Position numbers and translations under genes: made by a program
Shown here: in pieces, positions 9,101 through 33,100 of the stretch
How positions within the stretch are numbered: the first letter of the stretch is position 1
How the letters are laid out: every line of letters starts with the position of its first letter
Assembly: GCF_964194025.1 (NCBI RefSeq)
Contig: NC_134468.1
Location: 74,462,001 to 74,526,000, forward strand
DNA length: 64,000 nucleotides
Direction of reading: 5' to 3'
From: Convolutriloba macropyga
Taxonomy: Eukaryota
The notes under the pieces: generated by a model
The model's database searches: none
What the model was told of the DNA's origin: nothing
What the model saw: the letters and a program-made list of their open reading frames with translations, nothing else

Positions 9101-12100
9101 CTTAGTCAAATCAAATACATATTTTTTTCTCAATTTTGATCAAACAATACATTGACTGATTTAATAAAAGCTGTCTGCATTATAACCTTTCGATGAATTC
9201 CAACTCTGTCAATGTACGACCATCCACCCTGTCAATGACATATGGTCTCTGCTCTAGCATCTGGCGAGAAATCTCCATTGGCAGCTGGTCAATGGAATTT
9301 GTGAAGTTGGTCCTGAACTTTTCCAAATCCATCCGCAAGTAATACTGCTCGTTGCAGAACAGATCTCCGCTCGCCAGCTCTGAAGTAAGAAAGAAAACAT
9401 CCTAAACCCGTACTGTAGCAGCACTTCATGTTTTACAAAAAAGTGACGCGTTCAAGTTTTGTGATAAATCTAGCTTGTGTATGATTTCATCAATTGATGT
9501 ATTGACAAAAGTCACACACATTTAGTAAAGCAAAATAGTTTTTCCAATTCAAAAACTTTTTCCTGTTCCTTTTGTTTAAGTTTGGAGCCAAGCAAAACTA
9601 GACTTGTTTTAAATATTGTCAGCCAAACTATCGGAAAAACTTTGAGCATAGTAATCGTAAAAACAAACTCGAATAAAAAACGAAAGATTAATAATAGCCG
9701 TTTGAGAGGCTGACGGCCGCTATTAAAAAAAGAACAATTAAAAAACGAGAAATAACGAAGCAAGATTTGAGAATCAGTACGCCACACTTAAGATTTAAGA
9801 AAAGTTTTTCTTTTCCAGTAGATAACGAGAAGTCCATACAATTCTCATCACAAAAACCAGTTAAAAAACGCACTGGCGGCAAAAAAAGTTAGACAATAAC
9901 TGTTAACATTTTGCTAGCCAATTCAGTTCATAAATGACGTAATCCGACCAAGTTATGTCCAACATTTCAACTGTGAAATTCCGCTTTATTATACTCATAG
10001 CTTTATATCTACACCAGTTTTTCTTCCTAAAGGCGATATATTGGGCTTATTTCCGCTATGAAACCAGTCCCTGCTCAAGTCGCATGTATTAGAAATACTA
10101 ATTTGGCATTTCCAGTAGTATTTTCGATCCAGGGCTCGATCCAGCGACCCTGTGATCAATAGTCCAATGTTTTACCGCTATCTATCTGCGGTATATTGCA
10201 TTATTTACATGATATACAAATAAAAACTACACGCTTAAAATACTCGCTGCTGATTATATTTATTAATTTATCTCGTACTAGCAACAACCAAAGTCGAAAA
10301 AGTTTGCATAATTTTTATAANNNNNNNNNNNNNNNNNNNNNNNATACGAATTGGCAATTTTTGCCAGCGAATATTTCCAACTCCAGATTGATTTTGAGGT
10401 TTAGGATTCATAGTAAATGTTAGTAGTTACAAAATTACATTCACTTAAAAATTGAATTTTTTCAAAGTTGATAAAGGTCTTTTGCAAGACATACTTACTT
10501 TTATGACGATTTTGTGAGCTATATGTTCTGGCACTGCAAACATAAATACGCAAATTGATACCATTTTTTGCAATTTTTTTTACTTCTCTGAGTTTCATTC
10601 TTCGCTCATTCTGCTCAAAGTGCTTTTGAAAAGCAGTTGCTCAAGAAAACAATCTAAATTGAACGGAGCCATAAAAAATGAAATAAAATAAAGAAACGGT
10701 ATAAACCCATAAAGCCCAAATTTAGATACCCGCTATTCTTATAAGTCTTGGTTACCATCTCTGATGCTTATTGGTATTTCAAATAACCCCCTCTATCCTC
10801 TCCCTCAAGAACAGGAGTAACTACAAAAGGAAATAAAAGATATCGCAATTTAAAATTGTTTTTGTATAAAAATCAATCTTCATTTTTTTCTGATTCTTTT
10901 TCAATCCCATGCGGTTTTTTTCTGGCAATCTGCCGGGTATGTTTAAGAGTTTGAGGATAACAGATGTTTTGATATTGCAGCTTCTTTGACTCCGAAGTTC
11001 AACTTTGAGCGGATAATATCGTTTGATGCTCTGTCTCAACAACAGCTGGACTATTTAAAGCAAGGCAGCATCATATTCTTAGTCTATGGCAAACAGGAGG
11101 ACCTCAGAAGCGACCCGTCCAAGAAACACATGACCACAAAGGTACTCTGCATTTGTATAAACTTAACCTCTTTCTCATTACTCTCGGCCTTTACATCAAT
11201 ATCAAGGGTAACAATTCTATAATTTTAGCCCCTCCCCACTCCCACCTTTTTCTTGAAACTGCGTCCATGGCCGAGTTATGCATAACCAGCTAGAGCAGGT
11301 ACCACAGATTTTGCAACAAAAATCTATTTGAAGTTAAGGGATTAACTGTAATTAGGAGCCCTTGTTTTAATGTAAACTGGATTTTGCTTACGAAATCGAG
11401 AAAATTTGCACGAAATAGACAAATTTATGGGGCTGCTCTAGCTAGTTGTGTCCCTAACTCTGAGTGAAAATTTAGTTTTATATTTATGTATTGCATAAAT
11501 AGTATGCGCGTTCAAATTCTTAAAGTAAACGCTTTCGATAATCTGGAGTGGAATATGGGAAGTAGAATATATAACATTAGTAGTTATATGTAAGCAGATC
11601 AGGGGGGGGGGGGTAAAAGGACGTACCTATGTATAAAGATTACCTATAGCCTATTTTCATCAATTTTCCAAAGACGTACCTAAAAAAGAGAGTGAGAACA
11701 ATAGACCTGTCATCTTATCGTAATTACCCAGGGGTAATTATCTTAATTACCCCAGGGAAATGCATCCGCTCTAATGCACTTCAGCTAATCTTATCTACTT
11801 AATAAATTATATCTGCGGAACTTTCACTTTTAATCATTTTCACATTTTATTCATCCGCGCATAGTTATCACAACTATAACTTTCGTTCATTCATTTACAT
11901 GTGGAGAATGCTATTTTATCATTTTCAATTGTAATTCAATAGAATTTACACGATTTTGTGCTGATATACAAAAGTTTTGACAATTTTACCATTTTTCTCC
12001 AAAAATACCCAATTTTCCCCAAAAATAACCAATTCTTGGCAAAAAAACCCAATTCTTCCCAAAAATACCCAATTCTTGCTAAAAAATACCCAATTATTGG

Positions 12101-15100
12101 TAAAAAATACCCAATTCTTCCCGAAAAATAACCAATTCTGGCCAAAATATCCAATTCTTGGCAAAAAATACCCAATTCTTCCCAAAAAATACCCAATTCT
12201 TCCCAAAAAATACCCAATTCTGGCCAAAAAATACCCAATTTCCCCAAAAAATACCCAATTCTGACCAAAAAATACCCAATTCGTCCAAAAAATACCCAAT
12301 TTTTGGCAAAAAACCCAATTCCTGGCAAAAATACTCAATTCTTCTCAAAAAATACCCAATTCTGACCAAAAAATACCCAATTCTTATCAAAAAATACCCA
12401 ATTCTTCCCGAAAAATACCCAATTCTTAGCAAAAAATACCCAATTCTTCCCAAAAAATATCCAATTCTTCCCAAAAAATACCCAATTCTGGCCAAAAAAT
12501 ACCCAACTTTCCCAAAAAAAATACCCAATTCTGACCAAAAAATACCCAATTCTTCCGAAAAATACCCAATTTTTGGCAAAAAATACCCAATTCCTGGCAA
12601 AAAATACCCAATTTTTCCCAAAAAATACCCAATTCGTGGCAAATAATACCCAATTCTTATCAAAAAACTACCCAAATCTTATCAAAAACACCGAATTCGT
12701 GGCCAAAAATTAACAAGTTTGAGTTGAAAATCCCCAGTTTTATCAGCATATTTCAGAAAATTACCCAAAGTTCAAAGAATTTTACCCAAATTTTTCCTTA
12801 ACTGTTCGAATTTTTTCCCATTATTCCCACAATTTCGCAATTTTAGGTCCTTACAAGTTTCAAAATCTTTATTGTAATAACGAAATCTCTCACGTGATCG
12901 CATTAATTTTGTCTGGAGGTAAATGACCTCTGAATTCTCCTATTAACAAATTTACTGTGTCATCTGTTAATGTGCCTAAAATTCTCACGTGATTAGACAA
13001 TTAGTCACTATATTATTGTCACAATTACTCGCAAAAGTACAATCACATCATAGTAATCCACAATTACATCAAAGTATTGTCATAATTAGGTCATAATAAC
13101 GTCACAATTACGTCATTCTGTCATCACAATTACGTCATATTCAACAGAGAACTTTTCATTTTCGTTTATTTTCATTTTCCTGATTTACAGAATTGAGTGC
13201 AGTTGAGTACACTAATCTCTACAACTTCTGACAAAAATATTATTTCATCGCAACTTCCATCTTAACAATTTTTACTCCTCCTTTTCTCACTTCTAATCTT
13301 ACAATTTATTTTATTTTCAGAGATGCCTCGAAAGTCGGACGAAAAAGAACTTTGCAAGTCTTGCGATAAATTTATTTTGAAATCCAATATGAGTAGACAT
13401 CAGAAACGTCACGCAAAAGTTTGCTCACATTGAACCCAGTCATTTCCGGACGACGAGAAACTGCGGAAACACATTGCTTCTGTACATGCACCGTCTCTGG
13501 TTATCAAGAAAAAGTTTTCTTGTAGCAGCTCTCCCTTATCCTTCTCTACATATTATCAACTTCTTCATCATAAACGAAACAGTCACCAACGTTCAATTCC
13601 TAGCACCTACGAGGACGTTGACATAACTATCTATGGAGACTCTCCCGCTCTTCACAGTGAACTTCAAACGATTCAAAACTTTTTACAAGACTCAGTGCTT
13701 GAATTGTCTAGAAAGAAAGTGCATAACTTCAAGTTATTCGAACTCAGTCACAAAACAGTGATCAACAAATTGGATTTCGTTTACAACGACTTACCCAGTT
13801 CAGCGAAAATTAACATTTCCTTTGGTTTTGTACTTCAAAGTCTGCATAACTCGGACGAATTTCGATACTTTTACGCGGCAGACAACAATCCCATTTTTCA
13901 AAATCCTATGGTTCTCTCCGATGACTCAGATCTCAATTTTATCAAATCGAAATTGAGAAGTGAAGATTTTCTACCCAATCTAATCAATCAACGTCCAGAC
14001 ACGAAATGGAAGTTTTATTGTGTTACAAATGTCACTTTCTTTGTATTTCTCCTCAGTGGTGTTCCTCTAGACTGTATAACTCAAAATATTCCATCCATTT
14101 TGCTCAAGAACAAGCACGTTAAATGTTTTGTTTCGGATTGTGAAAAAAAACCCTACCAAGACAACCTGTGTATGTTCCGTGCCTTAGCTTACGATTTGTA
14201 CGGTAGTGTTGAATTACAAAATAAAACAATGGAATTGATGCAGATGTTTCTCTCAGCGACAAGGAGAGATAACGAAACCTTTCCAGGAGTACATGAAGAC
14301 GATATTTCTGTACTTGAAGAGATAACAGACAGAAATATTCAAGTTTATACAATATTTTTTGCGGAACAATCTGAAATGTTTGCTGAACTAACTCGTCGCT
14401 CCTTGATGAAACGCACAAAGACAACTTCGTTGCTGAGATAAGAAAATCATATCTGTTGGACAGCGGACATCAACAAATTCCTCAAAAAAATTCCGGTGCT
14501 ACATATGTGATCACTTTTTCGATAGATCAAACAATTTGATGGTCCATCTAAAGAATTGTTCCGAAAACACACAACATAGGTATCCCTCAGGAGCTTATCA
14601 ATTAGCAGAAACCATTTTTGATCGACTGAAAGACGTTAATATTACGGTTCCGCAAGAACTCAGGCTTTTTTCTCATCTTATTGTATTTGATTTTGAGTCA
14701 ATAACCGTCCCCGACAATACACTCAGAAACACTGATTTGACTTCGTGGATTGGAAAACATGTTCCCATTAGCGTTTCGATAGCTTCCAACCTAATTAAAG
14801 ACCCAATATTCATTTGCAACGAGGATCCGAATCAACTAATCCGTGATTTTGTATCCAGCTTGACTAATATAGCAGAAAAAAAGCACACTTATAATGAGGG
14901 AAAAACTCAATGCTTTCGTGCTGGAATTGGAAGAAAAGTATTGGGCAGTTCGACAATTGGTTCCAGTGAAAGACAAGCAGGTACCCACTGGAGTGGAAGA
15001 CTTATTTGACAACGAAGCTGAACCCGACGAAGAGGAGGATGAAGAACTTGAAATTAGGAGACTGAGGTGCGAGCTCAAGATGTTATCAAAATTGAGACAA

Positions 15101-18100
15101 GACATTGAGAACTATTACAGCGCCATTCCTGTTTTCGGGTTTAACAGCTCTCGGTATGATTTGAACCTGATAAAAGAATATCTTCTGCATCATCTGTTAA
15201 TCGAGAAAAACGTTGTTCCCAAAGTGATTCGTACGGGGAACAAATATATTGGAATGAACTTTCTTGGCTTGCAGTTTCTGGACATTCTTAACTTCCTGGG
15301 AGGAGTTACAACTCTGGATAATTTTCTGAAAGCGTATGGAGCCAGTGAAGAGAAGGGTTTTTTCCCTTATGAGTGGTTTGACAGTGCTGAAAAAATGAAT
15401 GAGTCCCAACTGCCACCAATTGAAAGTTTCTGGAGTAAGTTGAAAAACCATAACGTCTTGTCAGTCGATTACGATAAGTTCATGGATTGCAAAAAAAGGG
15501 GAATTGAAGAAAAGGAAGCTTTAAAGAAGCTGAAATTAAAAACAGTTCCCAAAAATGTAGAAGAGAACTACCGGGAACTTCAAAACATTTGGGAAAAGGA
15601 GAACATGAACACTTTTCGTGATTTTCTCAAGTGGTATAACAACAAAGACGTCGTGCCCACTCTTGATGCGATGACAAAGATGATTCAATTCTACCACTCA
15701 AAACAAATTGATATGTTGAAACTGGGCTATACGCTTCCCAACTTGGCAAACAGATTTCTCCATTCATCAACAGATGCTGCGTTTTTCCCATTCTGCGAGC
15801 AAGACAAGGAATATGATAACTATATCAGAAATTGGCTGACAGGAGGACCCTCAATTATCTTCACCAGATATGCAAAAGTTGGCGAAACAAAGATTAGAGA
15901 GTCCGAAAATGTGTGCAAGTCTATTGTGGGCATTGATGCGAGTCAACTCTACCCATTCTCAATGACCAGGGAAATGCCAACGGGACTCTACACAAAATGG
16001 GAGTTCAATGACGACACTGCAAAGTTTCACCCAAAAAGGAATTGGAGGAGTTTGTTTGAGCAGCAGGTAATCGAATACTTGCAGAGCACTCGTCCAGAAT
16101 GTTTAATACAGTCACAGTTCAGTCACAAAAAACAGAAAAAATTGGAACTTATTTCGTCGATGCCTTCTGCTCTCATTGCAACACAGTGTTTGAGGCAATG
16201 GGATGCTACTTTCATTTTGTCCCTGTCAGGAGGAAAAGCCGCTGTTATTTGAAGATATAGAGAACGGATTAAAGACACGGGAACGAGATAGTGATCGAAG
16301 AGAGTATCTGCAAGGATTAGGATACACAGTTGTTGAAATTTGGGAGTGTCAGTGGAAACAGTGGAGGAGGGAAAACATAAATGGAGTAAAGGAGTTCGTC
16401 AACAAGAAATATCCATTTCAACCACCCCTTTCTAAAAATGCTCTTATTGAAAAAATAAAACGAGATTTGTTTGGAGTGGTCGATTGCAGCCTTGAAGTCC
16501 CCGAACACTTGTACCCTTACTTTGAAGACTTTCCTCCTATTTTTAAGAATTGTGAAGTTGGACGAGACAACATTGGGGTCCACATGAAAGAATTTGCTGA
16601 GCGACACAAGTTATTGTCAAAACCAAGAAAAATGCTCATTTCTAGTTTCAAGCTTGACAGAGGACCAATTATTACTCCACTTTTGTTATTTTATCTGGAA
16701 AAAGGAGTGATTCTAAGAGACGTTTCTTGGTTCCTACAATACACTCCCCGTCTGCTTCCAGTCCTTTGTGCAAAACGTTGTTGATGCTCGCCGCTCTGGC
16801 ACTGCAAACATAAATATGCAAATTGATACCATTTTTTGCAATTTTTTTTACTTCTCTGAGTTTCATTCTTCGCTCATTCTGCTCAAAGTGCTTTTGAAAA
16901 GCAGTTGCTCAAGAAAACAATCTAAATTGAACGGAGCCATAAAAAATGAAATAAAATAAAGAAACGGTATAAACCCATAAAGCCCAAATTTAGATACCCG
17001 CTATTCTTATAAGTCTTGGTTACCATCTCTGATGCTTATTGGTATTTCAAATAACCCCCTCTATCCTCTCCCTCAAGAACAGGAGTAACTACAAAAGGAA
17101 ATAAAAGATATCGCAATTTAAAATTGTTTTTGTATAAAAATCAATCTTCATTTTTTTCTGATTCTTTTTCAATCCCATGCGGTTTTTTTCTGGCAATCTG
17201 CCGGGTATGTTTAAGAGTTTGAGGATAACAGATGTTTTGATATTGCAGCTTCTTTGACTCCGAAGTTCAACTTTGAGCGGATAATATCGTTTGATGCTCT
17301 GTCTCAACAACAGCTGGACTATTTAAAGCAAGGCAGCATCATATTCTTAGTCTATGGCAAACAGGAGGACCTCAGAAGCGACCCGTCCAAGAAACACATG
17401 ACCACAAAGGTACTCTGCATTTGTATAAACTTAACCTCTTTCTCATTACTCTCGGCCTTTACATCAATATCAAGGGTAACAATTCTATAATTTTAGCCCC
17501 TCCCCACTCCCACCTTTTTCTTGAAACTGCGTCCATGGCCGAGTTATGCATAACCAGCTAGAGCAGGTACCACAGATTTTGCAACAAAAATCTATTTGAA
17601 GTTAAGGGATTAACTGTAATTAGGAGCCCTTGTTTTAATGTAAACTGGATTTTGCTTACGAAATCGAGAAAATTTGCACGAAATAGACAAATTTATGGGG
17701 CTGCTCTAGCTAGTTGTGTCCCTAACTCTGAGTGAAAATTTAGTTTTATATTTATGTATTGCATAAATAGTATGCGCGTTCAAATTCTTAAAGTAAACGC
17801 TTTCGATAATCTGGAGTGGAATATGGGAAGTAGAATATATAACATTAGTAGTTATATGTAAGCAGATCAGGGGGGGGGGGGTAAAAGGACGTACCTATGT
17901 ATAAAGATTACCTATAGCCTATTTTCATCAATTTTCCAAAGACGTACCTAAAAAAGAGAGTGAGAACAATAGACCTGTCATCTTATCGTAATTACCCAGG
18001 GGTAATTATCTTAATTACCCCAGGGAAATGCATCCGCTCTAATGCACTTCAGCTAATCTTATCTACTTAATAAATTATATCTGCGGAACTTTCACTTTTA

Positions 18101-21100
18101 ATCATTTTCACATTTTATTCATCCGCGCATAGTTATCACAACTATAACTTTCGTTCATTCATTTACATGTGGAGAATGCTATTTTATCATTTTCAATTGT
18201 AATTCAATAGAATTTACACGATTTTGTGCTGATATACAAAAGTTTTGACAATTTTACCATTTTTCTCCAAAAATACCCAATTTTCCCCAAAAATAACCAA
18301 TTCTTGGCAAAAAAACCCAATTCTTCCCAAAAATACCCAATTCTTGCTAAAAAATACCCAATTATTGGTAAAAAATACCCAATTCTTCCCGAAAAATAAC
18401 CAATTCTGGCCAAAATATCCAATTCTTGGCAAAAAATACCCAATTCTTCCCAAAAAATACCCAATTCTTCCCAAAAAATACCCAATTCTGGCCAAAAAAT
18501 ACCCAATTTCCCCAAAAAATACCCAATTCTGACCAAAAAATACCCAATTCGTCCAAAAAATACCCAATTTTTGGCAAAAAACCCAATTCCTGGCAAAAAT
18601 ACTCAATTCTTCCCAAAAAATACCCAATTCTGACCAAAAAATACCCAATTCTTATCAAAAAATACCCAATTCTTCCCGAAAAATACCCAATTCTTAGCAA
18701 AAAATACCCAATTCTTCCCAAAAAATATCCAATTCTTCCCAAAAAATACCCAATTCTGGCCAAAAAATACCCAACTTTCCCAAAAAAAATACCCAATTCT
18801 GACCAAAAAATACCCAATTCTTCCGAAAAATACCCAATTTTTGGCAAAAAATACCCAATTCCTGGCAAAAAATACCCAATTTTTCCCAAAAAATACCCAA
18901 TTCGTGGCAAATAATACCCAATTCTTATCAAAAAACTACCCAAATCTTATCAAAAACACCGAATTCGTGGCCAAAAATTAACAAGTTTGAGTTGAAAATC
19001 CCCAGTTTTATCAGCATATTTCAGAAAATTACCCAAAGTTCAAAGAATTTTACCCAAATTTTTCCTTAACTGTTCGAATTTTTTCCCATTATTCCCACAA
19101 TTTCGCAATTTTAGGTCCTTACAAGTTTCAAAATCTTTATTGTAATAACGAAATCTCTCACGTGATCGCATTAATTTTGTCTGGAGGTAAATGACCTCTG
19201 AATTCTCCTATTAACAAATTTACTGTGTCATCTGTTAATGTGCCTAAAATTCTCACGTGATTAGACAATTAGTCACTATATTATTGTCACAATTACTCGC
19301 AAAAGTACAATCACATCATAGTAATCCACAATTACATCAAAGTATTGTCATAATTAGGTCATAATAACGTCACAATTACGTCATTCTGTCATCACAATTA
19401 CGTCATATTCAACAGAGAACTTTTCATTTTCGTTTATTTTCATTTTCCTGATTTACAGAATTGAGTGCAGTTGAGTACACTAATCTCTACAACTTCTGAC
19501 AAAAATATTATTTCATCGCAACTTCCATCTTAACAATTTTTACTCCTCCTTTTCTCACTTCTAATCTTACAATTTATTTTATTTTCAGAGATGCCTCGAA
19601 AGTCGGACGAAAAAGAACTTTGCAAGTCTTGCGATAAATTTATTTTGAAATCCAATATGAGTAGACATCAGAAACGTCACGCAAAAGTTTGCTCACATTG
19701 AACCCAGTCATTTCCGGACGACGAGAAACTGCGGAAACACATTGCTTCTGTACATGCACCGTCTCTGGTTATCAAGAAAAAGTTTTCTTGTAGCAGCTCT
19801 CCCTTATCCTTCTCTACATATTATCAACTTCTTCATCATAAACGAAACAGTCACCAACGTTCAATTCCTAGCACCTACGAGGACGTTGACATAACTATCT
19901 ATGGAGACTCTCCCGCTCTTCACAGTGAACTTCAAACGATTCAAAACTTTTTACAAGACTCAGTGCTTGAATTGTCTAGAAAGAAAGTGCATAACTTCAA
20001 GTTATTCGAACTCAGTCACAAAACAGTGATCAACAAATTGGATTTCGTTTACAACGACTTACCCAGTTCAGCGAAAATTAACATTTCCTTTGGTTTTGTA
20101 CTTCAAAGTCTGCATAACTCGGACGAATTTCGATACTTTTACGCGGCAGACAACAATCCCATTTTTCAAAATCCTATGGTTCTCTCCGATGACTCAGATC
20201 TCAATTTTATCAAATCGAAATTGAGAAGTGAAGATTTTCTACCCAATCTAATCAATCAACGTCCAGACACGAAATGGAAGTTTTATTGTGTTACAAATGT
20301 CACTTTCTTTGTATTTCTCCTCAGTGGTGTTCCTCTAGACTGTATAACTCAAAATATTCCATCCATTTTGCTCAAGAACAAGCACGTTAAATGTTTTGTT
20401 TCGGATTGTGAAAAAAAACCCTACCAAGACAACCTGTGTATGTTCCGTGCCTTAGCTTACGATTTGTACGGTAGTGTTGAATTACAAAATAAAACAATGG
20501 AATTGATGCAGATGTTTCTCTCAGCGACAAGGAGAGATAACGAAACCTTTCCAGGAGTACATGAAGACGATATTTCTGTACTTGAAGAGATAACAGACAG
20601 AAATATTCAAGTTTATACAATATTTTTTGCGGAACAATCTGAAATGTTTGCTGAACTAACTCGTCGCTCCTTGATGAAACGCACAAAGACAACTTCGTTG
20701 CTGAGATAAGAAAATCATATCTGTTGGACAGCGGACATCAACAAATTCCTCAAAAAAATTCCGGTGCTACATATGTGATCACTTTTTCGATAGATCAAAC
20801 AATTTGATGGTCCATCTAAAGAATTGTTCCGAAAACACACAACATAGGTATCCCTCAGGAGCTTATCAATTAGCAGAAACCATTTTTGATCGACTGAAAG
20901 ACGTTAATATTACGGTTCCGCAAGAACTCAGGCTTTTTTCTCATCTTATTGTATTTGATTTTGAGTCAATAACCGTCCCCGACAATACACTCAGAAACAC
21001 TGATTTGACTTCGTGGATTGGAAAACATGTTCCCATTAGCGTTTCGATAGCTTCCAACCTAATTAAAGACCCAATATTCATTTGCAACGAGGATCCGAAT

Positions 21101-24100
21101 CAACTAATCCGTGATTTTGTATCCAGCTTGACTAATATAGCAGAAAAAAAGCACACTTATAATGAGGGAAAAACTCAATGCTTTCGTGCTGGAATTGGAA
21201 GAAAAGTATTGGGCAGTTCGACAATTGGTTCCAGTGAAAGACAAGCAGGTACCCACTGGAGTGGAAGACTTATTTGACAACGAAGCTGAACCCGACGAAG
21301 AGGAGGATGAAGAACTTGAAATTAGGAGACTGAGGTGCGAGCTCAAGATGTTATCAAAATTGAGACAAGACATTGAGAACTATTACAGCGCCATTCCTGT
21401 TTTCGGGTTTAACAGCTCTCGGTATGATTTGAACCTGATAAAAGAATATCTTCTGCATCATCTGTTAATCGAGAAAAACGTTGTTCCCAAAGTGATTCGT
21501 ACGGGGAACAAATATATTGGAATGAACTTTCTTGGCTTGCAGTTTCTGGACATTCTTAACTTCCTGGGAGGAGTTACAACTCTGGATAATTTTCTGAAAG
21601 CGTATGGAGCCAGTGAAGAGAAGGGTTTTTTCCCTTATGAGTGGTTTGACAGTGCTGAAAAAATGAATGAGTCCCAACTGCCACCAATTGAAAGTTTCTG
21701 GAGTAAGTTGAAAAACCATAACGTCTTGTCAGTCGATTACGATAAGTTCATGGATTGCAAAAAAAGGGGAATTGAAGAAAAGGAAGCTTTAAAGAAGCTG
21801 AAATTAAAAACAGTTCCCAAAAATGTAGAAGAGAACTACCGGGAACTTCAAAACATTTGGGAAAAGGAGAACATGAACACTTTTCGTGATTTTCTCAAGT
21901 GGTATAACAAGACGTCGTGCCCACTCTTGATGCGATGACAAAGATGATTCAATTCTACCACTCAAAACAAATTGATATGTTGAAACTGGGCTATACGCTT
22001 CCCAACTTGGCAAACAGATTTCTCCATTCATCAACAGATGCTGCATTTTTCCCATTCTGCGTGCAAGACAAGGAATATGATAACTATATCAGAAATTGGC
22101 TGACAGGAGGACCCTCGATTATCTTCACCAGATATGCAAAAGTTGGCGAAACAAAGATTAGAGAGTCCGAAAATGTGTGCAAGTCTATTGTGGGCATTGA
22201 TGCGAGTCAACTCTACCCATTCTCAATGACCAGGGAAATGCCAACGGGACTCTACACAAAATGGGAGTTAATGACGACACTGCAAAGTTTCACCCAAAAA
22301 GGAATTGGAGGAGTTTGTTTGAGCAGCAGGTAATCGAATACTTGCAGAGCACTCGTCCAGAATGTTTAATACAGTCACAGTTCAGTCACAAAAAACAGAA
22401 AAAAATTGGAACTTATCTCGTCGATGGCTTCTGCTCTCATTGCAACACAGTGTTTGAGGCAATGGGATGCTACTTTCACTTTTGTCCCTGTCAGGAGGAA
22501 AAGCCGCTGTTATTTGAAGATATAGAGAACGGATTAAAGACACGGGAACGAGATAGTGATCGAAGAGAGTATCTGCAGGGATTAGGATACAGTTGTTGAA
22601 ATTTGGGAGTGTCAGTGGAAACAGTGGAGGAGGGAAAACATAAATGGAGTAAAGGAGTTCGTCAACAAGAAATATCCATTTCAACCACCCCTTTCTAAAA
22701 ATGCTCTTATTGAAAAAATAAAACGAGGAGATTTGTTTGGAGTGGTCGATTGCAGCCTTGAAGTCCCCGAACACTTGTACCCTTACTTTGAAGACTTTCC
22801 TCCTATTTTTAAGAATTGTGAAGTTGGACGAGACAACATTGGGGTCCACATGAAAGAATTTGCTGAGCGACACAAGTTATTGTCAAAACCAAGAAAAATG
22901 CTCATTTCTAGTTTCAAGCTTGACAGAGGACCAATTATTACTCCACTTTTGTTATTTTATCTGGAAAAAGGAGTGATTCTAAGAGACGTTTTTTGGTTCC
23001 TACAATACACTCCCCGCCGCTGCTTTCAGTCCTTTGTGCAAAACGTTGTTGATGCTCGCCGCGAAGGAGACCGAAACAAAGACTCAACAGTCGTTGCTGA
23101 AACTATGAAATTGATAGGTAACAGCTCATACGGGTATCAGATAATGGATCGTAGCCGGCACACGACCACAAAATATGTTAAAGGTTCTCAAGTGGATAAG
23201 TTTATCAACAACAGATTTTTCAAGACTATGAATGAACTACCAGAAGAAATTTATGAGGTAGAAATGAGCAAAACACGTATCGAGCACAAGGAACCAATAA
23301 TTGTTGGCTTTTTTATTCTGCAGTACGCTAAACTTACAATGTTACAACTCAAGTACAATTTCTTCTCCACTTTCTGCGACAAAAATAAGTACGAACTCAT
23401 TGAAATGGATACCGACAGTCTGTACATGGCGCTCAGTGAGGAAAGACTTGACAAAATCATTCGACCAGAAATGCAATCATTGTGGTACTGGATGAGACAG
23501 AGCGACTGCAGTGATAATTTTGCAGCAAACTCAAGCAGCAACTTTTTCCCACGTGAATGTTGCAACAAGCATGCGAATTTTGACAAGAGAACTCCAGGCT
23601 TGTTCAAAGAAGAATTTAGATGCTCAGAAATGATTGCTTTGTGCTCAAAAACTTATTGCTGCTACGATGAGCAATCAGATACTGTAAAATTATCCAGTAA
23701 GGGGCTCAAGAAAAACAACATCGAGGAACCCTTAGCCAAATACAGAAAAGTATTGTTTGATGAGGAGCGAGTATATTCAACGAACAGGGGATTTCGCGTA
23801 GTCGACAATAAGAAAGTATGCACATATGAACTCAAAAAAGTGGGACTGTCATACTTTTATCCCAAGCGTAAAGTCTGTGAAGACGGAATTCACACTACTC
23901 CTAGATATATAAGTCATTTTCTTTAGATTTTGTAAATTTTTAGCCTTCTTTCGTTTTATATCTTTTTTAATTCACTGTTTACCATACAAAATGTCTTTTG
24001 AAAAAAAATCATTGTATATAATAACTAAATTAGATACAAATACACATACAAATAATTAAGTACAAAATTTACAATTTTTTTTAAAAAGTTTTGAAAACCA

Positions 24101-27100
24101 TTTGCATCATTATACGGATCAATGTTTAAACAATTAAAGATTTTGGTTGTCAAAACTTACAAAACATCAGCAAAAAACTTCAAAATATGAAAATCATTTA
24201 AATATTTAGACGAGACTTTAGAAAATAACACATGTGCAAAATAAATAGCATATAAACCACACAATTATGAATCTTGGAGTTTTTCCTGTACTAATGAACC
24301 AAAGTTTGCTTTTGTCCTGATGCCATATTTTTCCAAAACTTCTCCCATCGAATCACCGTAGAACAACTTTCCATTTTTATTGGCTAGCAAAATCCAGTGC
24401 GAGCCCGGTTGAGTAGATGGATCTGTGTTGATTATACAAAACGTGTTTGTAGGTAAATTTTTTGGTCGAAGATCTGCAGGGAAGGAACCCAGATATTTGA
24501 ACTTTAGGTGTGGGAACCTGTTGACAACATGTAAGAGTTGTTGATTATCCATTTTTGGTGACTGATCCCTCTTTGTCAATTGCAATTGAACTTATACGTT
24601 CACCACTAACAAATAATTCTACAGTATTAGCCAAATTGTTAGCAAAGTAGAGCTCTAAGCGAATTCCTGCTCCAACTACATCAGGAAAATGCATTTCGAC
24701 ATTGGCCTCCTGTGTTGAAGTAAGATCGAAAAATAAATGAAAATGGTTTTCAAAATCCTTGTATTGAATGTTAGGACCGTCATCATCAAATTTGAGTGCT
24801 TTCATCGTTTCAGCATAAGCTCTCACATGATTTTCCGTTTGCAAGTTAACTATAGTTTGATTCCCACGCACAATTTTAACTTGTCGAAGACCAAATTTAC
24901 GAAAATGGAACGGATTCGTGTTGTATGTTCCACTGAACTCATTATTCAGATTCATAGCAATATCAATCATTCGAATTGGCTTGTTTGAAAATATATTTTC
25001 TTGTATAAACTGATTCTGTCCAGCTGGAATGATAAACGTTTTTGGAAGTTCTTCATTATAGTAAAATATGGCAGGTTCTCGCAGCAGTCTGCTTTTGAAA
25101 CTTCTCATCCAGTTATCTGAGATTGCTACCTGTCTAGTAAAAAGGCAAGCTTCCAAAATTGTAGCCTCAGAGTTCAGCCCACCAGTATCGATCATATAGA
25201 ACGCTGGAGATGACCGGATCAATTTCAGTCTGAGGTTGACATTTGGGAGAAGTAAAGTTTCACAGGCAAATAGACCTATTGCTAACGGACCGTAAAAAGT
25301 AAAATCATCTTTATCCTTTTTAAAAACAGTATCTGTAAATGCTCTTTTTGTAAAATCGTTTGGCTCAATCTCGTATCGATATCCTTGGCATTGAGATAAG
25401 CTTTCCTTCGTTCCTTTTGTCCCTGAAAATTCAGCAGAGACAAAAGCTTGATGAGCATAAAGAGAATTGGCACTGTGAACTTGTTCATTGTTAAGATATA
25501 CTTCGCAATTAGAGAAAAGAGAATGAAGAGCATTGTTTACCAATAATGTTTCTTCGGCATTATCTAAACGTGTTCGATCTCCTTTAATAACCCTTCCTCT
25601 GATGAATAATCGAGTAGAGCGCAAGTCAGTAAAAATATTACGATCAGTTTCCAATTGAAATTCGATTGTTGACTCGTTTAAGGAATTTGTTGGAAATATT
25701 TGCTGTTCATTGGACCAAAGAATGGGGTCTAGAATTGGAACTTTCCCAAAAAAGTCTAGCATAGAGTGAGACAAGGAATTCATTTGCATTTTAGCCGACC
25801 GTTTTTTATAATGATAATTGAGGAAATGATCAAGATTTTTTTTTGGAATAATAACGTAAGTTGAACTTGACCAATAGGGAAGAAGGGAACAAGGTGCCCA
25901 GCAGCGTTTCTTAATTCTACATGGATGCTGTGGAAGTTGGATTTGATTACTTTATGGAATCTCAAGTGTTCGAAACTGCGATAACTCAGAACCTGAGATC
26001 TCCTAAAATTCTCATCATTGTGGAACTCTCGGTGTTTGAACGGAAACGAGCGTAGAAGAGGACATTTCACATCACCGACTGAATCGGGTTCAACTATATC
26101 CAAGTAGAGTAAAACTGTATGTGTTCCAGTAATATCAAAAGGGAGATCTGCCGTTGCCCAGGACTTGGTGTTGCATGATCCTTTAGAATCAGGTGGCATA
26201 ACAGGTTTGTCAGCTTCAACGCCCAAGTTAGCAGCCAAACTTTTGCTGAAGGATACATTTTGAGATCCTCTATTGCAAAAAGTTAGTCTTCGACTTTTTT
26301 TGTCGATGTTGATAGAAAATTGAGGATCTAAGTTTTTGGGATGTCGTGCTTTTTTGGGTATATCTGTAAGACTCTTCGCAAATTCGTCCATAGAGTTAAA
26401 AACTGCTGGTGGAATAGCGAATACATGCTTAAATTTCTCATCATAGTGAAATGTCATCAATCCTCCTTCAATGTTATAACATATACCGGGATATGATACT
26501 TCGACTAAAGCTACTTCCCATGATCCATCCAGTTCAATTTTGTCGGGAAGAAAATTGGTGAACGAAGCCATTGCATTTTGAGGGTAAACTTGAGAGGAAG
26601 CGTTGGATACCAATTCTAGATAAAACGAATTCATGATGTTTGACTGTTCTGTGTGACGTTTGTTTGGAAAAATGATTAGTCAAGGTTCTTCAAAAAGTCT
26701 TTGCGAATTTTTTGTCGAGTAACACTTTGTCTAGTGTTTTTCCTCTTTTTCATACCACCACCAACTTGTTTCTGTATTGTTGATTTTGCAGTCTTCTTTA
26801 CTGCTTTTTTAATCGAAGTCTGTCCTGATAAAACACCACCAATTTCGGGAATGGCTGACTCGATTACATCTCGTCCAATTTTTTTTGCTGCAGGTAAAAC
26901 GTATTTCTTGAGAATGGGAAGAGTTGTCCTAGCGACTGTTCTAGCCAAGGCTCCAAAGCCACGCCCCCTCTGACGAGGAACTCCTTTAAAATAAGGTAGA
27001 TTGTAACCGTCCATTTTCTAGCGCGACTAATTGAAAAATGATTATGCAACTTTTGACAATTCTTGTTCGTAAAAGATTCCATCAATGATTTCTCCTTTCT

Positions 27101-30100
27101 GATCAACAACAAAATATGTCGGGAAGGGCGCTGAAGTATTTATTTTTCGAACTAGGAAAATTTCATGTGTATAGTGAGGTTTATATCCTTTCTGAAATTT
27201 GCCCTCTGCTAATGCCAACCTAACTTTATCTCCTACTTGAAACTTGGGCTTTGTATTTTTTCGTAGCTTCATTCGCTTGTACATGACAGTCAAAAAGTCA
27301 GCATTCACTACATCTTTGGGTGCCAACCCAATATTCCGATTGATTCTTGAGTTAATGACGTCAACAAACATTTGCAGTTCTTTGATATAGGTTAATGTGT
27401 CGTTTTCTTCCAGGTAGCGGTAAATTAAAACTTTCAGGGTTCGTATAGCTCTCTCGCCAAAAGCTACTTTCGTTTCACTATAAGTGTGATTATATTTGAT
27501 TCCCACGTCCTCGCAGAAATTGGCCATATCTCCGAAAAACTCTTTTCCCTGATCTAGCCATAATTTTTTTGGGAAATTGAGTTCGTTCTTTTTCGAACAC
27601 ATTTTGATAAAAGCTGCTTTTACGGCCTCTGCTCCTTTTCTCCGTAATGGTTCTACTCGCAGGTATCGAGAAAAAACATCTACAGTAACGAGTAAAAAGT
27701 TGATACCTCGATTCCATCGTGATAGTTTATCCATTTGCGCAAGATCCAAGCACCAAATCTCATCAATATAGCGAGCATGCGCATTTATCCGGGGAAATTT
27801 TCGTCTGATTCCTTTGTACTTCGTATAAGAGTCTTTTAACTGTAAAAATTCTGTAACTCTCTCGCGACTGATTCCACTTGCTTTTGTTAGGTTATTGATA
27901 GAACCGAAAGCTGTTGGTCCCTTCCCTTTATACAACTTCTGCAATTTGATTCTATCTGAAACTGTAATTGAACCAGTCTGAGCCATACTGTGTCCTCAAA
28001 ATGTTGTTTTTAACCAGATGTGTTCTCAGATTTAGAACTTTAAGAATAAGGAAATAGTTTGGATCAACTGGAGCGTTCTTCAATTTAATTGAATGAAGGA
28101 ATGTTTTTATGTCAACTCCTGTGTCAACGTTGTCGACAATAATTGTATTGGAAAGTGAAATTTTCAACCGTTTGTTTTCGTATATCTCTTTCAAAGTTTT
28201 CAATGTCTCAGGATAGTTCTTATAGTGAAATTCCAGGTCTGTATTAAGTTCTTTAGGTGGACGATTGGTTTTTTCGGAACGTTCTTCTTTCACTTTTTTG
28301 ATAACTGGGAAAATTGTTTCTTCTTTTTTATAGATCTCGCTGTAGGGTTCCGATGGTTTCCTTTTTCTGGTCTCCCACAGTTCTTTTGGAACAAGAACAA
28401 ACTTTTTGACCTCACTCATTGAAGAAAGTTGAAAATTTGTTCATACAAGGTTGGTATATGTAACTTAATATTGTTATTCCAGCTTTTGAGCCCAATATAA
28501 GTCTTCTGGAACTTAGGGTTGTTGATTTTGATGTGAGCTTTCTAAGTTGTTCTTGGAAGCGAGTGAACTGATTTCTTCTTAATCCTGTGAGGTTTCCTTT
28601 AATCAAGTTTACAATACACTCACAGAGAAATCTGATGAATTCCTTAGGACAATGTAGAAGGAAAGCTGGTTGAAATTTCTTGTTGAGATTCCGAAAGAGC
28701 TTCAGAGTATAATAATTCTGTGCGTTTATCATTAATATCACTAATACGAGCACGACTGTTCGGTACGAAGAATTCTGAAGGAAATGAAGTTACATTTGAA
28801 CAATATCTTAACAAATCAGGTGTAGATGGTCTCAAATCAATCATAAGATGCCCATATGGTTGTTGTGTAGCGTCATCATACCATTGTTTTAGTTGTTTTC
28901 CCAGACCCAGTTGTCTTCCCAATATATCAATTTGCTGCACATCTCTGGGTGATTTGAACAAAACAATGTGAGTAGTCTGAAGCTCGGCGTCACGTCCAGT
29001 TTTATTTTTGTGGAAGAGATTATGTTTGATATAAACACAATTTAAATTTTGATGTCTACCGGCTGTCGCAATTTCGTGGAATTTTTCCGACTTGGAAAGA
29101 ATGTCTAATGAGTCATCGAATATAAGTAAATATTTTGTGCCGTCAGCTGGTAAGTTCTCAATTAATTCAAAGTCAACACCCTGAATGAATTCTATACCTG
29201 CAATTGATTGCATCATTGTATCGTAAATTGTCTGAAAGTGCTTATAAAAGTATAAAATTCGATCAAAAGAGGGTTGAAAAGTTTTCATTTGCAGCATATC
29301 ATTAATGAAAACAGTTTTCCCAGATCCGGAAGGCCCAACAAGATACATCAGAATGCGTTCCTTTGTTGATATAATCTTGTTCATTTTATGCTCTGGGGTT
29401 AGGAAGTATGTAACCTACAGCACTTGAAAGAATAGCAATCCAAACTGTTCGTTCGTCACAAGTTCTAGCAAAAATAAGGTTGATAATTGAAAAAAGAAGA
29501 AGTATTAATACAACTAAGCACTGAAATATTGACAAAAAAGCTGTTCGAGAGCAAGTGCGTCCGCAAATTTTCCAAGGAGGTCGCTCCTGATTGTTATTAT
29601 CGAAAATAAAGTCAGCTGCGTGATTGTTATGATCTGTCATTAGAGTGCAACTGATTTTTGTTCGTGTTTAGGAAATAATGATTCACACTTTGATTGAATG
29701 GAATCGTGGTGAAAATTTCAGAAAACAACAATATGCTAGACCTGTTATATGTCCCAAGAAACAAAAGTTAAATTTTGAATTAGGGAATGGAACCAGGTAA
29801 CAGTACCCAGGACCAATATTTAGATTTGTTTTCAGGTATCCCGTTGCATCATGAAATGTGGCATGTAAACGAAAAATTTTCGACCAATTCAAAAGTTTTT
29901 CTAACTTTGAATCACCAACTCCTATTAGACCTCCAAAGGGAGCTTCTCTGTTAATTTTATCTAGATCTGCATTTTTGTCAAAACTTCGACAGACAGCCAA
30001 AAAATAATTTTTCCTTTTTGTATTTCCAACAAAAAGTTGACTGATTTCTTTTTCGAACTCTACAATTTCCTTAATATTCATATCAAGCAACTGTTCTGAA

Positions 30101-33100
30101 AGAATTTAATTCAAAAAGTGAATAAATAAAGACATCACATACATTATAAAAGTTTACAATTACTTTATGCACTTTGCGATTTTGTCGGGTTTTTGACTTT
30201 GTTCAGCACTGAAATAATTTCATTGCTCATTCGATGTAATTTCTGCAACTCCCCAATTCTGACAGAAAGGAAGCATTTCCTTCTAAAACTGTCCTTTTCA
30301 GTCCCTCGAGTGAAGAGCTTGATGCTGAAATAACATCGATTCGGATCATCTTGGTAAAATGTTCTGGTCACACATACTTTTCGCCTAGCAGTCTCACTCA
30401 ATTCTCAGAACACATCGAATTTTGCTTTTTCCTCCACATCAGTTGGCTGGAACAAAGTTTTGTCAATCATCAATTTTGCAGTAACTTCTGTGGGTTCAAA
30501 TTGTAGTGCTTCTTTCAACATCTCAGGTAATTTTTGGATGAAAATTTTCAATTCCCAGACCGACAGCATCAGAAACTGATGTAGAACAAATTCACCTTCG
30601 ACATTTTCGCGAAAGACTTTCAAGTGGGTCCAATTCGAGCTTGTGTTGATAGTCTCCTCTGGGATGCTGATTTGAAATTTCCGGTTGCTGTATTCTTGGA
30701 AAGACCAAAGGTTGTTGTTTCCTTGGTGATCCTCATTTGTTTTGCAAACAGTGTCCTCAACTTTCACGTTGGTATCGGTAAACAAAGAATATATGCTTTC
30801 ATTATGATAATCAAACTGGGAGGAAGGAGTAACTGGTCTTCCCTTATGGTTTCGTTTGCGGAAGGGGAAGGCGTAGGGTTTTTTGCTGTCAGCTGAGACT
30901 GAACTTTGATCCATCTGTGGCGTGTGAAGTAAGTAAAAGATGAGTTTTTAAAGCAAGAAAGGAAGAATTGAATAAATAAGGTAACTGAATATTGAAAACG
31001 AAAAGCAACAAATGAATGAATTATCTTCGAAGAGCTTCATAAATCGAACCAATGAAATTTTAGTAAGAACGAGAATTATTGCGACATCGTAACCAATGAG
31101 ATTATGTAAAAGCAGTCGTAACCAATGAGATTTGAGTGCTCATCATGACGTAATAGTTATGTCATTTCTAATTTTAGTAACATCACGTGACGTGACAAAT
31201 GTTGTCACGTGAGGGAGAATTTAGCAAAGAATACAAGAAAATGTTAAGACTTATATTGGAGAGCACCTGTAGTTCGAGAAAGAAACATTTTGATGAAGTG
31301 ATTGGTTCTCATCATTGTCATTTTCTTGGATAGGAGGAAGAATAAGATCTCGGAAATTGGGAAGATCGAAGGTTTCTGATTTTGTAGAAATTGTATCAGC
31401 ATGTTTGGAGAACATGTCTTCTACCCACCATACACCGTAGTGATTTATTTCACGAGAGTACGGGAACAAAATACCTTTGCAGTCTTTGAGTGGATGAAAT
31501 CCTTGTTCTTTTCGAATTCTCTCAATGGCCTGGAAATAAGTGGGGAGAGAAAGTACTGAATTGTTGACTTTTTCTTCTGCTAAGTGGAGGTCATGATGTC
31601 TAGCAGCCTCTAAAGTTCTCCACAAATCTTTCGGAAGTGTTAAGCTGGTAGTCTGTGTTTTTATTGTTACTCTTGTGCAATCCACCTCAAAGGATAATTC
31701 GATGTTGTTATCAGTTACTGTTGTTCTAAATTTCGATTCCTCTTTGTTGGGAACGAAATCTAGATCAGAATGAAATGTCGAAAGAAAAGATGTTGAAGGA
31801 AGAAAAGGAAGTGTTGGAGTAGTTTGCATTTTTTTAAGACCACTGATATTCAACTGAGACAAAACACAAAATGAACAGAGTTTCTCGGTCCTAGCTTATT
31901 TTAACATAGATTATACGAATGATATGATTGGATAAAAAAATTCATTATAGTAAAACATTTTTCAAAAAAAAACTAATGTAAAACTTTTACATAAAAAACT
32001 TCAAAAATTGAAAAATGGAAAAGAAAAATAAAAAACCGCAAAATTTGCATTTTCTGTTATAAACCTTATGTAAAAAAACGCATATTTGGAAGAAAGTTAT
32101 TTTAAGTAAAAACGATTTTTTTTCAAAAAAAATTACATTAAAAAACTTCAAAAACTGAAAAAATAGAAAAATAGAAAAATAAAAAACATCAAAATCTGCA
32201 TTTTTTGCTAAAACCTTATGTAAAAAACGACATTTTTGAAAGACATTTAATTTAAGTAAAACAATTCTTTTCAAAAAAAAATAATAAAAATTTACATGAA
32301 AAAAACTGCAAAACTGAAAAATGATAAAATAGAAAAATAAAAAAACATAAAAATCTGCATTTTTTGTTATAAACCTTATGTAAAAAACAACTTTTTTTAA
32401 ATAAGAAATATTCTAAAAAAATTAGCATTTCTATAAAAATAATTATTTTTTTAAATTAAACTCAAGAATTCGAAAAAAAATGAAAACTATTTTTTTTTCA
32501 AAAACTAACAAATGGAAAAAAAGAAAATTTCAAATTATACATTTTTCATCAAAAACCTTACGAAAAAAAAGACATTTTTCAACCAAAATTGATTTAATTA
32601 AATTAAAAAAAATTAAAATAAAAAAATTTTCATAAAAAACTTCAAAAATTGAAAAGTGGAAAAATAAAATTAAAAAAAAACAAAAATAATTATTTCCTTT
32701 CAAAAAAGTTTAAGTAGATAAGATTAGCTGAAGTGCATTAGAGCGGACGCATTTCCCTGGGGCAATTAAGATAATTATCCCTGGGTAATTACGATAAGAT
32801 GACAGGTCTATTTTTCTCACTCTCTTTTTAGGTACATCTTTGGAAATTGGACGAAAATAGGCTATACCTAATGTTAATACATAGGTACATCCTTTTACCC
32901 CCCCCCCAGGTCTGCTCAGCTACTACTACTGGTGCNNNNNNNNNNNNNNNNNNNNNNNNNNNNNNNNNNNNNNNNNNNNNNNNNNNNNNNNNNNNNNNNN
33001 NNNNNNNNNNNNNNNNNNNNNNNNNNNNNNNNNNNNNNNNNNNNNNNNNNNNNNNNNNNNNNNNNNNNNNNNNNNNNNNNNNNNNNNNNNNNNNNNNNNN

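Follow-up and report, generated by a model that had tools for sequence, protein, structure and literature searches.

Across a family of Polinton-type elements in the genome of Convolutriloba macropyga, bases at the tips of the terminal inverted repeats (TIRs) covary with single residues of the protein-primed DNA polymerase B (pPolB, or PolB) that the elements encode. One member of the family lies in the DNA analysed here, hereafter the window: 64,000 nucleotides (nt) of the forward strand of NC_134468.1, positions 74,462,001-74,526,000, in assembly GCF_964194025.1. A sequence-only reading had described that member as a virion-complete element in the first coding intron of JMJD6. The account that we hold to be reasonably likely differs on both points: the window copy is a broken, chimeric element from a kinesin-3 intron, scaffolded into JMJD6 by error, and the covariation of the family stems from a polymerase that reads its own origin. 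Positions below are those of the window; features are collected in Table 1.

The covariation was scored on a sample enlarged by 60 further left ends; among 81 stretches, 70 had both a tip and PolB, and with two irregular tips dropped, 68 were used. Residues are numbered after a copy with an open frame, and the scan set all tip bases against amino acids (aa) 1-560. Variability in the repeat peaks at TIR nt 7-23, where single sites reach 1.6 bits while the interior averages 0.29; the 68 copies carry 34 different tips. A test on 18 copies found the tip type associated with 5' PolB and not with the adjoining TIR interior. At nt 14 a rule emerged: in the first set G went with the zinc-finger helix RSFNL.RH, and A or C with RSNNL.VH, in 19 of 19 copies. 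In the whole sample nt 14 predicts aa 403 in 65 of 65 scorable copies and aa 407 in 63 of 65; the 48 held-out copies contribute 46 of 46 scorable and 44 of 46. A third class, T with RSYNLVNH (three copies), was first met among the held-out copies and is counted in their score. Further along the tip, nt 23 predicts aa 262 in 64 of 67 (A with K, 29/29; T with R, 35/37); all 12 copies with T at nt 21 have K264, a residue absent from the others; nt 12 goes with aa 417 (G with Q, 41/41; T with K, 11/12; C with H, 9/12). Ranked by normalized mutual information (nMI), the top pairs are nt 14-aa 403 (0.86), nt 14-aa 407 (0.85), nt 23-aa 262 (0.82), nt 21-aa 264 (0.75) and nt 12-aa 417 (0.74), while in 200 shuffles the maximum across 164 variable residues never passed 0.28. 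The peaks are narrow, at aa 241-280 and 381-440.

The tip and its partner residues bridge about 2.5 kb of unlinked sequence. Cross pairs between the nt 14 system and the nt 21/23 system have nMI of only 0.07-0.08, from which it follows that the two tip-residue pairs reassort independently; values for the TIR interior do not exceed 0.15. A tree built from aa 1-245, which lie in between, has 13 and 10 changes of the two tip states; all 8 independent pairs for the first and about 7 of 7 for the second agree (p 0.008 and 0.016). With one row kept per distinct tip, the match stands at 31/31 and 31/32 for the two pairs. Tips with the same upstream letters but another base at nt 14 carry the other finger type. 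The finger concerned is of C2HC form: all 50 aligned PolBs keep its four ligands, while its helix positions vary.

The window copy itself is a broken, likely chimeric Polinton and not one insertion. Its polymerase residues K262, K264, N403 and V407 fit the left tip and not the right, which lends the chimera independent support. The sequence-only reading had taken the element as a single intact insertion running from TIR to TIR, and the ends do not bear this out. Around 17847-32930 no target-site duplication (TSD) is present: AACATT stands on the left, and GGTGC followed by a gap on the right. Among 17 other paired copies the 6-bp TSD is exact in 15 (one matches at 5/6; one was misregistered by the search pattern), and the first 24 nt are identical at both ends in 16. 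The window repeats (17847-18070 and 32710-32930; 224 nt, 89.7% alike) have the (AGT)2 ends of Polintons/Mavericks; they mismatch at 20 of 217 nt, where 12 TSD-flanked copies have 0-5 mismatches, and the nearest relatives switch near 21,900. The region also includes a 6.27-kb tandem duplicate that the earlier account lacked (10527-16794 repeated at 16795-23062, 99.6% identical), which carries flank, left end and 5' PolB.

Nor is the coding content intact, or virion-complete as had been claimed: PolB is in seven pieces, and the protease, the penton and one accessory open reading frame (ORF) are altered. Set against 20 other family copies, the capsid protein, integrase, ATPase and six small ORFs have the modal length; the protease (95 vs 131 aa), the penton (284 vs 267) and ORF169 (vs 249) do not. 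Some of these breaks may be sequence or assembly errors, given the 14 indel columns that separate the tandem copies within 1.15 kb.

The mosaic could also have arisen in the animal, by ectopic recombination of two insertions and not by a mis-join, in which case the tandem duplicate may be real. Such an origin is possible, if on the unlikely side. Family copies recombine often, and the junction with an 8-nt TIR remnant at 10422-10429 occurs in contigs of both samples, so that the allele is truly rearranged. Against this, the contig ends 5 nt past the right TIR; the tandem copies are near-identical as far as 21,900, beyond which indels account for most differences (14 indel columns, 9 substitutions); and the partner end was not found in the assembly. 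A pattern search of the assembly for a left partner of the GGTGC end returned nothing, and one for a complete right-end junction at the kinesin site matched only the window's own left ends. Contig depths at window and empty allele (45.5/32.7, 3/3, 72.9/42 and 43.1/18.6) do not decide the reality of the duplicate. A high-copy host repeat (10465-10944) sits at the rearrangement and at the duplication junction 16794/16795.

What could hold tip and polymerase together through so much shuffling? In the proposal favoured here, the C2HC finger, ahead of the exonuclease domain, would contact tip nt 14-16, and nt 21-23 would touch a basic patch where the vOTU domain begins. A helix with R at -1, N at +3 and R at +6 would go with GAG, one with V at +6 with AAG or CAG, and one with N at +6 with TAG. 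For the first of these helices the zinc-finger code also specifies GAG. The loss of R at +6 goes with the loss of the first G of nt 14-16, in agreement with that code, and the spacing of the finger is canonical; from these sequence patterns we infer that the contact would be base-specific recognition. A recombinant tip that did not match would be copied poorly and would seldom yield a new integration, leaving tip and polymerase matched; copying through the paired TIRs would keep both ends of a genome alike at the tip, and the rve integrase would insert the product with a 6-bp TSD. Protein-primed replication starts at genome ends (PMC5175343), and the vOTU domain has been proposed to cleave between the terminal protein (TP) and itself (PMC11071308). 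After such a cut the mature polymerase would carry finger and patch at its front, with the finger closer to the genome end.

Several observations weigh against this proposal. Single zinc fingers usually bind weakly. The perfect covariation at helix position +2 lies outside the canonical code, and the usual partner of that position, nt 17, is invariant. Trees of the vOTU and exonuclease domains gave 2-5 pairs, in the same direction and not significant. The held-out copies were among the data from which the rules for aa 262, 264 and 417 and the T class at nt 14 (3 copies) were drawn up. No strong partner in aa 1-560 accounts for the variation at tip nt 7-11, 13 and 22 (best nMI 0.29-0.44). The TSD-flanked copy L109-L110 has unequal tips (nt 7-15), only the left of which fits its polymerase. 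Tip type is also associated with some bins far away (p 0.001 at 23347, for example), a sign of lineage structure. Finally, the covariation is known from one genome: a cross-species test gave 0 loci in IMG/VR, and 80 metagenomic loci, 10 of them scanned for inverted repeats, gave no usable pair of polymerase and tip. A C2HC-like finger is present in 42 of these 80 distant loci.

A second perspective accepts the contact and assigns it to packaging, to excision or integration, or to transcription from the TIR, and not to the start of replication. Covariation is silent on which step is selected, and pieces of PolB could act after vOTU cleavage. Even so, this seems distinctly unlikely: the partner residues lie in the polymerase; the integrase bins and the ATPase-free capsid bins have no such peak (18 copies; integrase bins p 0.32-0.88); and it is at the genome ends that protein-primed replication begins (PMC5175343).

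A third perspective would do away with recognition, and see in the covariation the shared ancestry or linkage of a few subfamilies. The copies are indeed related, bins far from the peaks do associate with tip type, and trees of recombining sequences are imperfect. The diversity of the tips, half as many as there are copies, fits this view badly, as do the unlinked TIR interior and aa 1-245 next to the covarying sites, the mutual independence of the two pairs, and the tips that are alike upstream, unlike at nt 14, and matched to another finger type. We give this explanation little credence.

Recognition of the origin by the polymerase, if true, has consequences. Natural copies, by their base-to-residue match, would name the origin bases of Polintons and the residues that read them; the finger conserved across this polymerase class would acquire a function; and strong cis-matching of genome and enzyme would be implied. 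The start of Polinton replication has so far been inferred from adenoviruses and phages, and the accessible portions of the Polinton literature consulted contain no origin-recognition element. Nor did the literature searched, in so far as its text was accessible, report a match of tip and polymerase, though subscription literature, Repbase or supplements might hold one; a literature search for acoel Polintons found none. One may go further and suppose that the polymerase carries a modular origin code, in which finger and vOTU-edge patch each read a few separate tip bases and whose pairs reassort freely to give dozens of replication-specificity types in one genome; for this the balance inclines slightly in favour. 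The purpose of such diversity is a matter of speculation: escape from defective copies, incompatibility of resident copies, and host factors come to mind. In practical terms, the tip-residue match is a simple check for chimeric copies in assemblies.

A polymerase that reads a sub-terminal sequence has a precedent in adenoviruses, where the complex of preterminal protein and polymerase recognises a core origin at bp 9-18 and Cys/His clusters are implicated in DNA binding. The tip reading proposed here would be analogous, being polymerase-borne and directed at a stretch of the inverted terminal repeat about as far from the end. In adenoviruses the core origin is conserved, however, whereas the tip is here the most variable part of the TIR and changes with the enzyme inside one genome.

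The window element is a capsid-encoding element of Polinton/adintovirus type. Of the gene set that the sequence-only reading had listed, the TIRs, integrase, ATPase, major capsid protein (MCP), pPolB and, weakly, adenain hold; the penton, core-like and membrane-active labels have no library match and rest on position and resemblance. Pfam searches with the window proteins matched rve (E 5.8e-9), the A32-type ATPase (6.5e-9), adenain weakly (0.019) and the pieces of pPolB; adenain in family copies reaches E 0.003-0.005, below the Pfam cut-off. For the MCP (414 aa) a profile found no match beyond E 0.02 among PDB sequences and Pfam. A double jelly-roll fold was predicted from a 63-row alignment (predicted local distance difference test, pLDDT, 86.5; 32 from the single sequence), and a Foldseek search with this predicted fold found an iridovirus MCP (E 3e-17). 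The penton ORF has no match in Pfam or PHROG, and its call depends on position and size. The 112-aa ORF at 26676-27014 is presumably cupiennin- or protein VI-like, and the 106-aa ORF within 27952-28732 presumably GasderminX-like. Sub-terminal arrays, of 21-bp units on the left (18259-19007) and of A-rich units of about 150 bp on the right (31941-32687), have copy-variable lengths.

In ends, size and genes the family resembles the animal Polintons of Barreat and Katzourakis (2021, PMC8097293), with (AGT)2 ends, a 6-bp TSD, a length of 13-18 kb, pPolB, integrase, ATPase and capsid genes, most copies being decayed. In its accessible portion that paper describes the 6-bp end motif alone; here a hypervariable tip (nt 7-23) is matched to the polymerase. 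The adintoviruses of Starrett et al. (2021, PMC8502044) resemble the family in adenain, rve, an FtsK-type ATPase, hexon and small genes of membrane-active appearance; they also have an OTU-bearing PolB and a penton, of which the family has putative counterparts. The sequence-only reading had taken an OTU-bearing PolB as the mark of the Alpha type, but Starrett et al. place OTU in Alpha and Beta alike (PMC8502044). The Alpha type, moreover, has an archetypal pfam03175 PolB, and a natural full-length copy of 1436 aa does not match PF03175 at E<=1; a PolB piece from the window matches it in part (profile 112-271 of 468, E 1e-11). The D-x-x-C and His columns of the OTU-like domain are kept in 50, 49 and 50 of 50 aligned PolBs, and a profile search of PolB for OTU gave no match. 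The same Cys/His arrangement upstream of the exonuclease marks the TP-vOTU-Exo-Palm pPolB of Krupovic et al. (2024, PMC11071308), where the text accessible does not mention zinc; here there are four fingers, one of which tracks the terminus. A Vsr domain is recognised in the 1436-aa pPolB (PDB 1vsr, E 3.4e-6), and Vsr-bearing divergent pPolB2 Polintons are known from molluscs and a marine nematode (Jeong et al. 2023, 10.1101/2023.08.22.554363). The named PolB relatives, at 34-37%, come from molluscs and an echinoderm; one of them, Haliotis rufescens, is a host in the Jeong Vsr set (10.1101/2023.08.22.554363). By its sequence, the window PolB would thus be of a divergent Vsr-bearing type, and may fit the pPolB2 group of Jeong et al. 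or, by its divergence, the Beta type, whose marks are a divergent PolB that groups with Beta references and genes for Cupiennin and GasderminX. The likeness to pPolB2 is one of description and not of a tree, and the accessible text of Jeong et al. mentions neither acoels nor zinc fingers in pPolB.

The family comprises at least 94 PolB matches (92 of 1956 candidates were scored). Intact copies, for which a genome-wide search had been suggested, exist in so far as 12 of the 94 matches have PolB in stop-free frames of at least 1,400 aa; the window copy, one of at least about 90, is itself broken. The two TIRs of a copy show 0-5 differences in about 217 nt, and these, with the stop-free frames, indicate that the family was recently active. 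Two TSD-flanked copies, L089-L090 (14.7 kb) and L072/L074 (6.1 kb), have right-end-like sequence at both ends, which suggests end replacement through paired TIRs, or non-autonomous forms.

The placement of the window copy turns on its flanks. The 22.6-kb contig that holds the element lies between gaps of 23 N (10321-10343) and 200 N (32936-33135). About 90 kb downstream is a gap-free kinesin-3 gene with motor and KIF1B domains, an exon and intron of which match the left flank of the element at 94% identity across 626 nt; that gene is without the element and serves as the empty allele. The reversed flank at 10344-10421 has one other match in the genome, the empty kinesin site (79% over 68 nt). 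The TIR remnant, target site and downstream intron at 10344-10429 place both insertion junctions in the kinesin intron. The element contig is thus very probably a leftover haplotype of that intron, misplaced into JMJD6 intron 1. A long contig of the insertion haplotype would have overlapped the next contig, software would have cut the overlap, and the unmatched tail would have stayed beside JMJD6. The mark of 23 N is, we assume, output of purge_dups; a literature search for such a gap signature found none. Purge_dups removes haplotype overlaps (10.1101/729962). Public contigs agree in part: beyond 10320, those of X1 and X2 continue for 328 and 340 nt and are records separate from the one that covers 10344-10487. 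The latter, a 166-nt contig that spans the TIR remnant, begins 22 nt before 10344 in X1, X3 and X4; the first window difference from the empty allele is at 10352, so that with 31-letter words this start is expected if the DNA to the left is kinesin intron. On the other side of the account, the reversed flank shares only 79% identity with the empty allele, while the opposite flank reaches 94%; contigs of X3 and X4 stop 24 nt past 10320, with which a true 16-nt gap is also compatible; the letters across both gaps have never been seen; and the contig layout over 32800-33560 is swamped by repeats and uninformative. That a rearranged kinesin fragment and Polinton truly lie inside JMJD6 intron 1, as the assembly displays them and as a paralogous duplicate at 79% identity and a real 16-nt gap suited to the X3 and X4 ends would allow, is scarcely credible in view of the gaps on both sides, two junctions in kinesin intron in the chromosome's own orientation, the separate X1 and X2 contigs, and the 22-nt offset that the difference at 10352 accounts for.

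The claimed interruption of JMJD6 is therefore most likely an artefact of a gap-bounded contig with kinesin flanks. The gene is real (PDB match, E 1.8e-44; the downstream exon is like human JMJD6), and its exons do join in phase 1 at 35552/9379 on the minus strand, as first read. Probably it is not interrupted, while one kinesin-3 allele is, and in this the negative result has a value of its own. Transcription of the structural cluster together with JMJD6, also suggested earlier, is unlikely, because the flanks place the insertion in the kinesin-3 intron.

Table 1. Features of the window (strand + or -; a point where none applies)
Feature	Position	Strand	Remarks
JMJD6 next exon	9187..9379	-	phase-1 join to first coding exon
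23-N gap	10321..10343	.	likely mark of a haplotype overlap removed by software
Reversed kinesin intron downstream of insertion site	10344..10421	-	ends in reversed target site AATGTT (10416-10421)
Remnant of true right TIR, 8 nt (AGTAGTTA)	10422..10429	+	tip type same as left end
First tandem copy	10527..16794	+	host repeat, kinesin exon 10981-11141, left TIR at 11579, 5' PolB
Kinesin-3 exon, second copy	17249..17409	+	AG/GT bounded; allelic to intact gene about 90 kb away
Target site AACATT	17841..17846	+	left junction
Left TIR	17847..18070	+	hypervariable tip nt 7-23 = 17853-17869; nt 14 A, nt 21 T, nt 23 A
21-bp tandem array	18259..19007	+	
pPolB	19591..23926	+	seven pieces; three C2H2 fingers, putative TP, vOTU-like, C2HC finger, exonuclease, Vsr insertion, palm
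PolB patch, aa 260-265	20368..20385	+	K262 fits tip nt 23, K264 fits nt 21
C2HC zinc finger, aa 392-412	20765..20827	+	N403 and V407 fit tip nt 14
Approximate switch point between two family copies	21900..22050	.	nearest copies change; tandem copies diverge from 21908
Adenain-like protease, 95 aa	24265..24552	-	ends before CGLY motif (residue 98 of 131-aa copies)
Double jelly-roll MCP, full length	24545..25789	-	fold and length match
Probable penton, aberrant C-terminus	25780..26634	-	284 vs modal 267 aa; identity from position only
Basic amphipathic ORF, 112 aa	26676..27014	-	length kept in family copies; no family match
rve integrase, full length	27042..27986	-	Pfam
Two conserved ORFs, 155 and 106 aa	27952..28732	-	
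A32-type packaging ATPase, full length	28644..29384	-	Pfam
Four accessory ORFs (84, 132, 169 and 192 aa)	29386..31829	-	169-aa ORF truncated (mode 249); no meaningful family match
Right TIR	32710..32930	-	other tip type (nt 14 G, nt 21 C, nt 23 T), from a different insertion
200-N scaffold gap	32936..33135	.	5 nt beyond right TIR
JMJD6 first coding exon	35552..35789	-	donor after 35552; start codon not fixed

The kinesin-3 insertion allele appears inverted over 10344-11578, where the downstream intron, target site and TIR remnant point away from the exon and left end. This allele may lack a correctly oriented exon; the second breakpoint is not in the assembly. An old LTR-like (long terminal repeat) sequence lies in JMJD6 intron 1 at 9871-10270, with relatives that occur as same-strand pairs about 10 kb apart. 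Near-identical tandem duplicates are found also at 5219-6888 (97%) and 54463-56805 (99%), and are possibly assembly-related.

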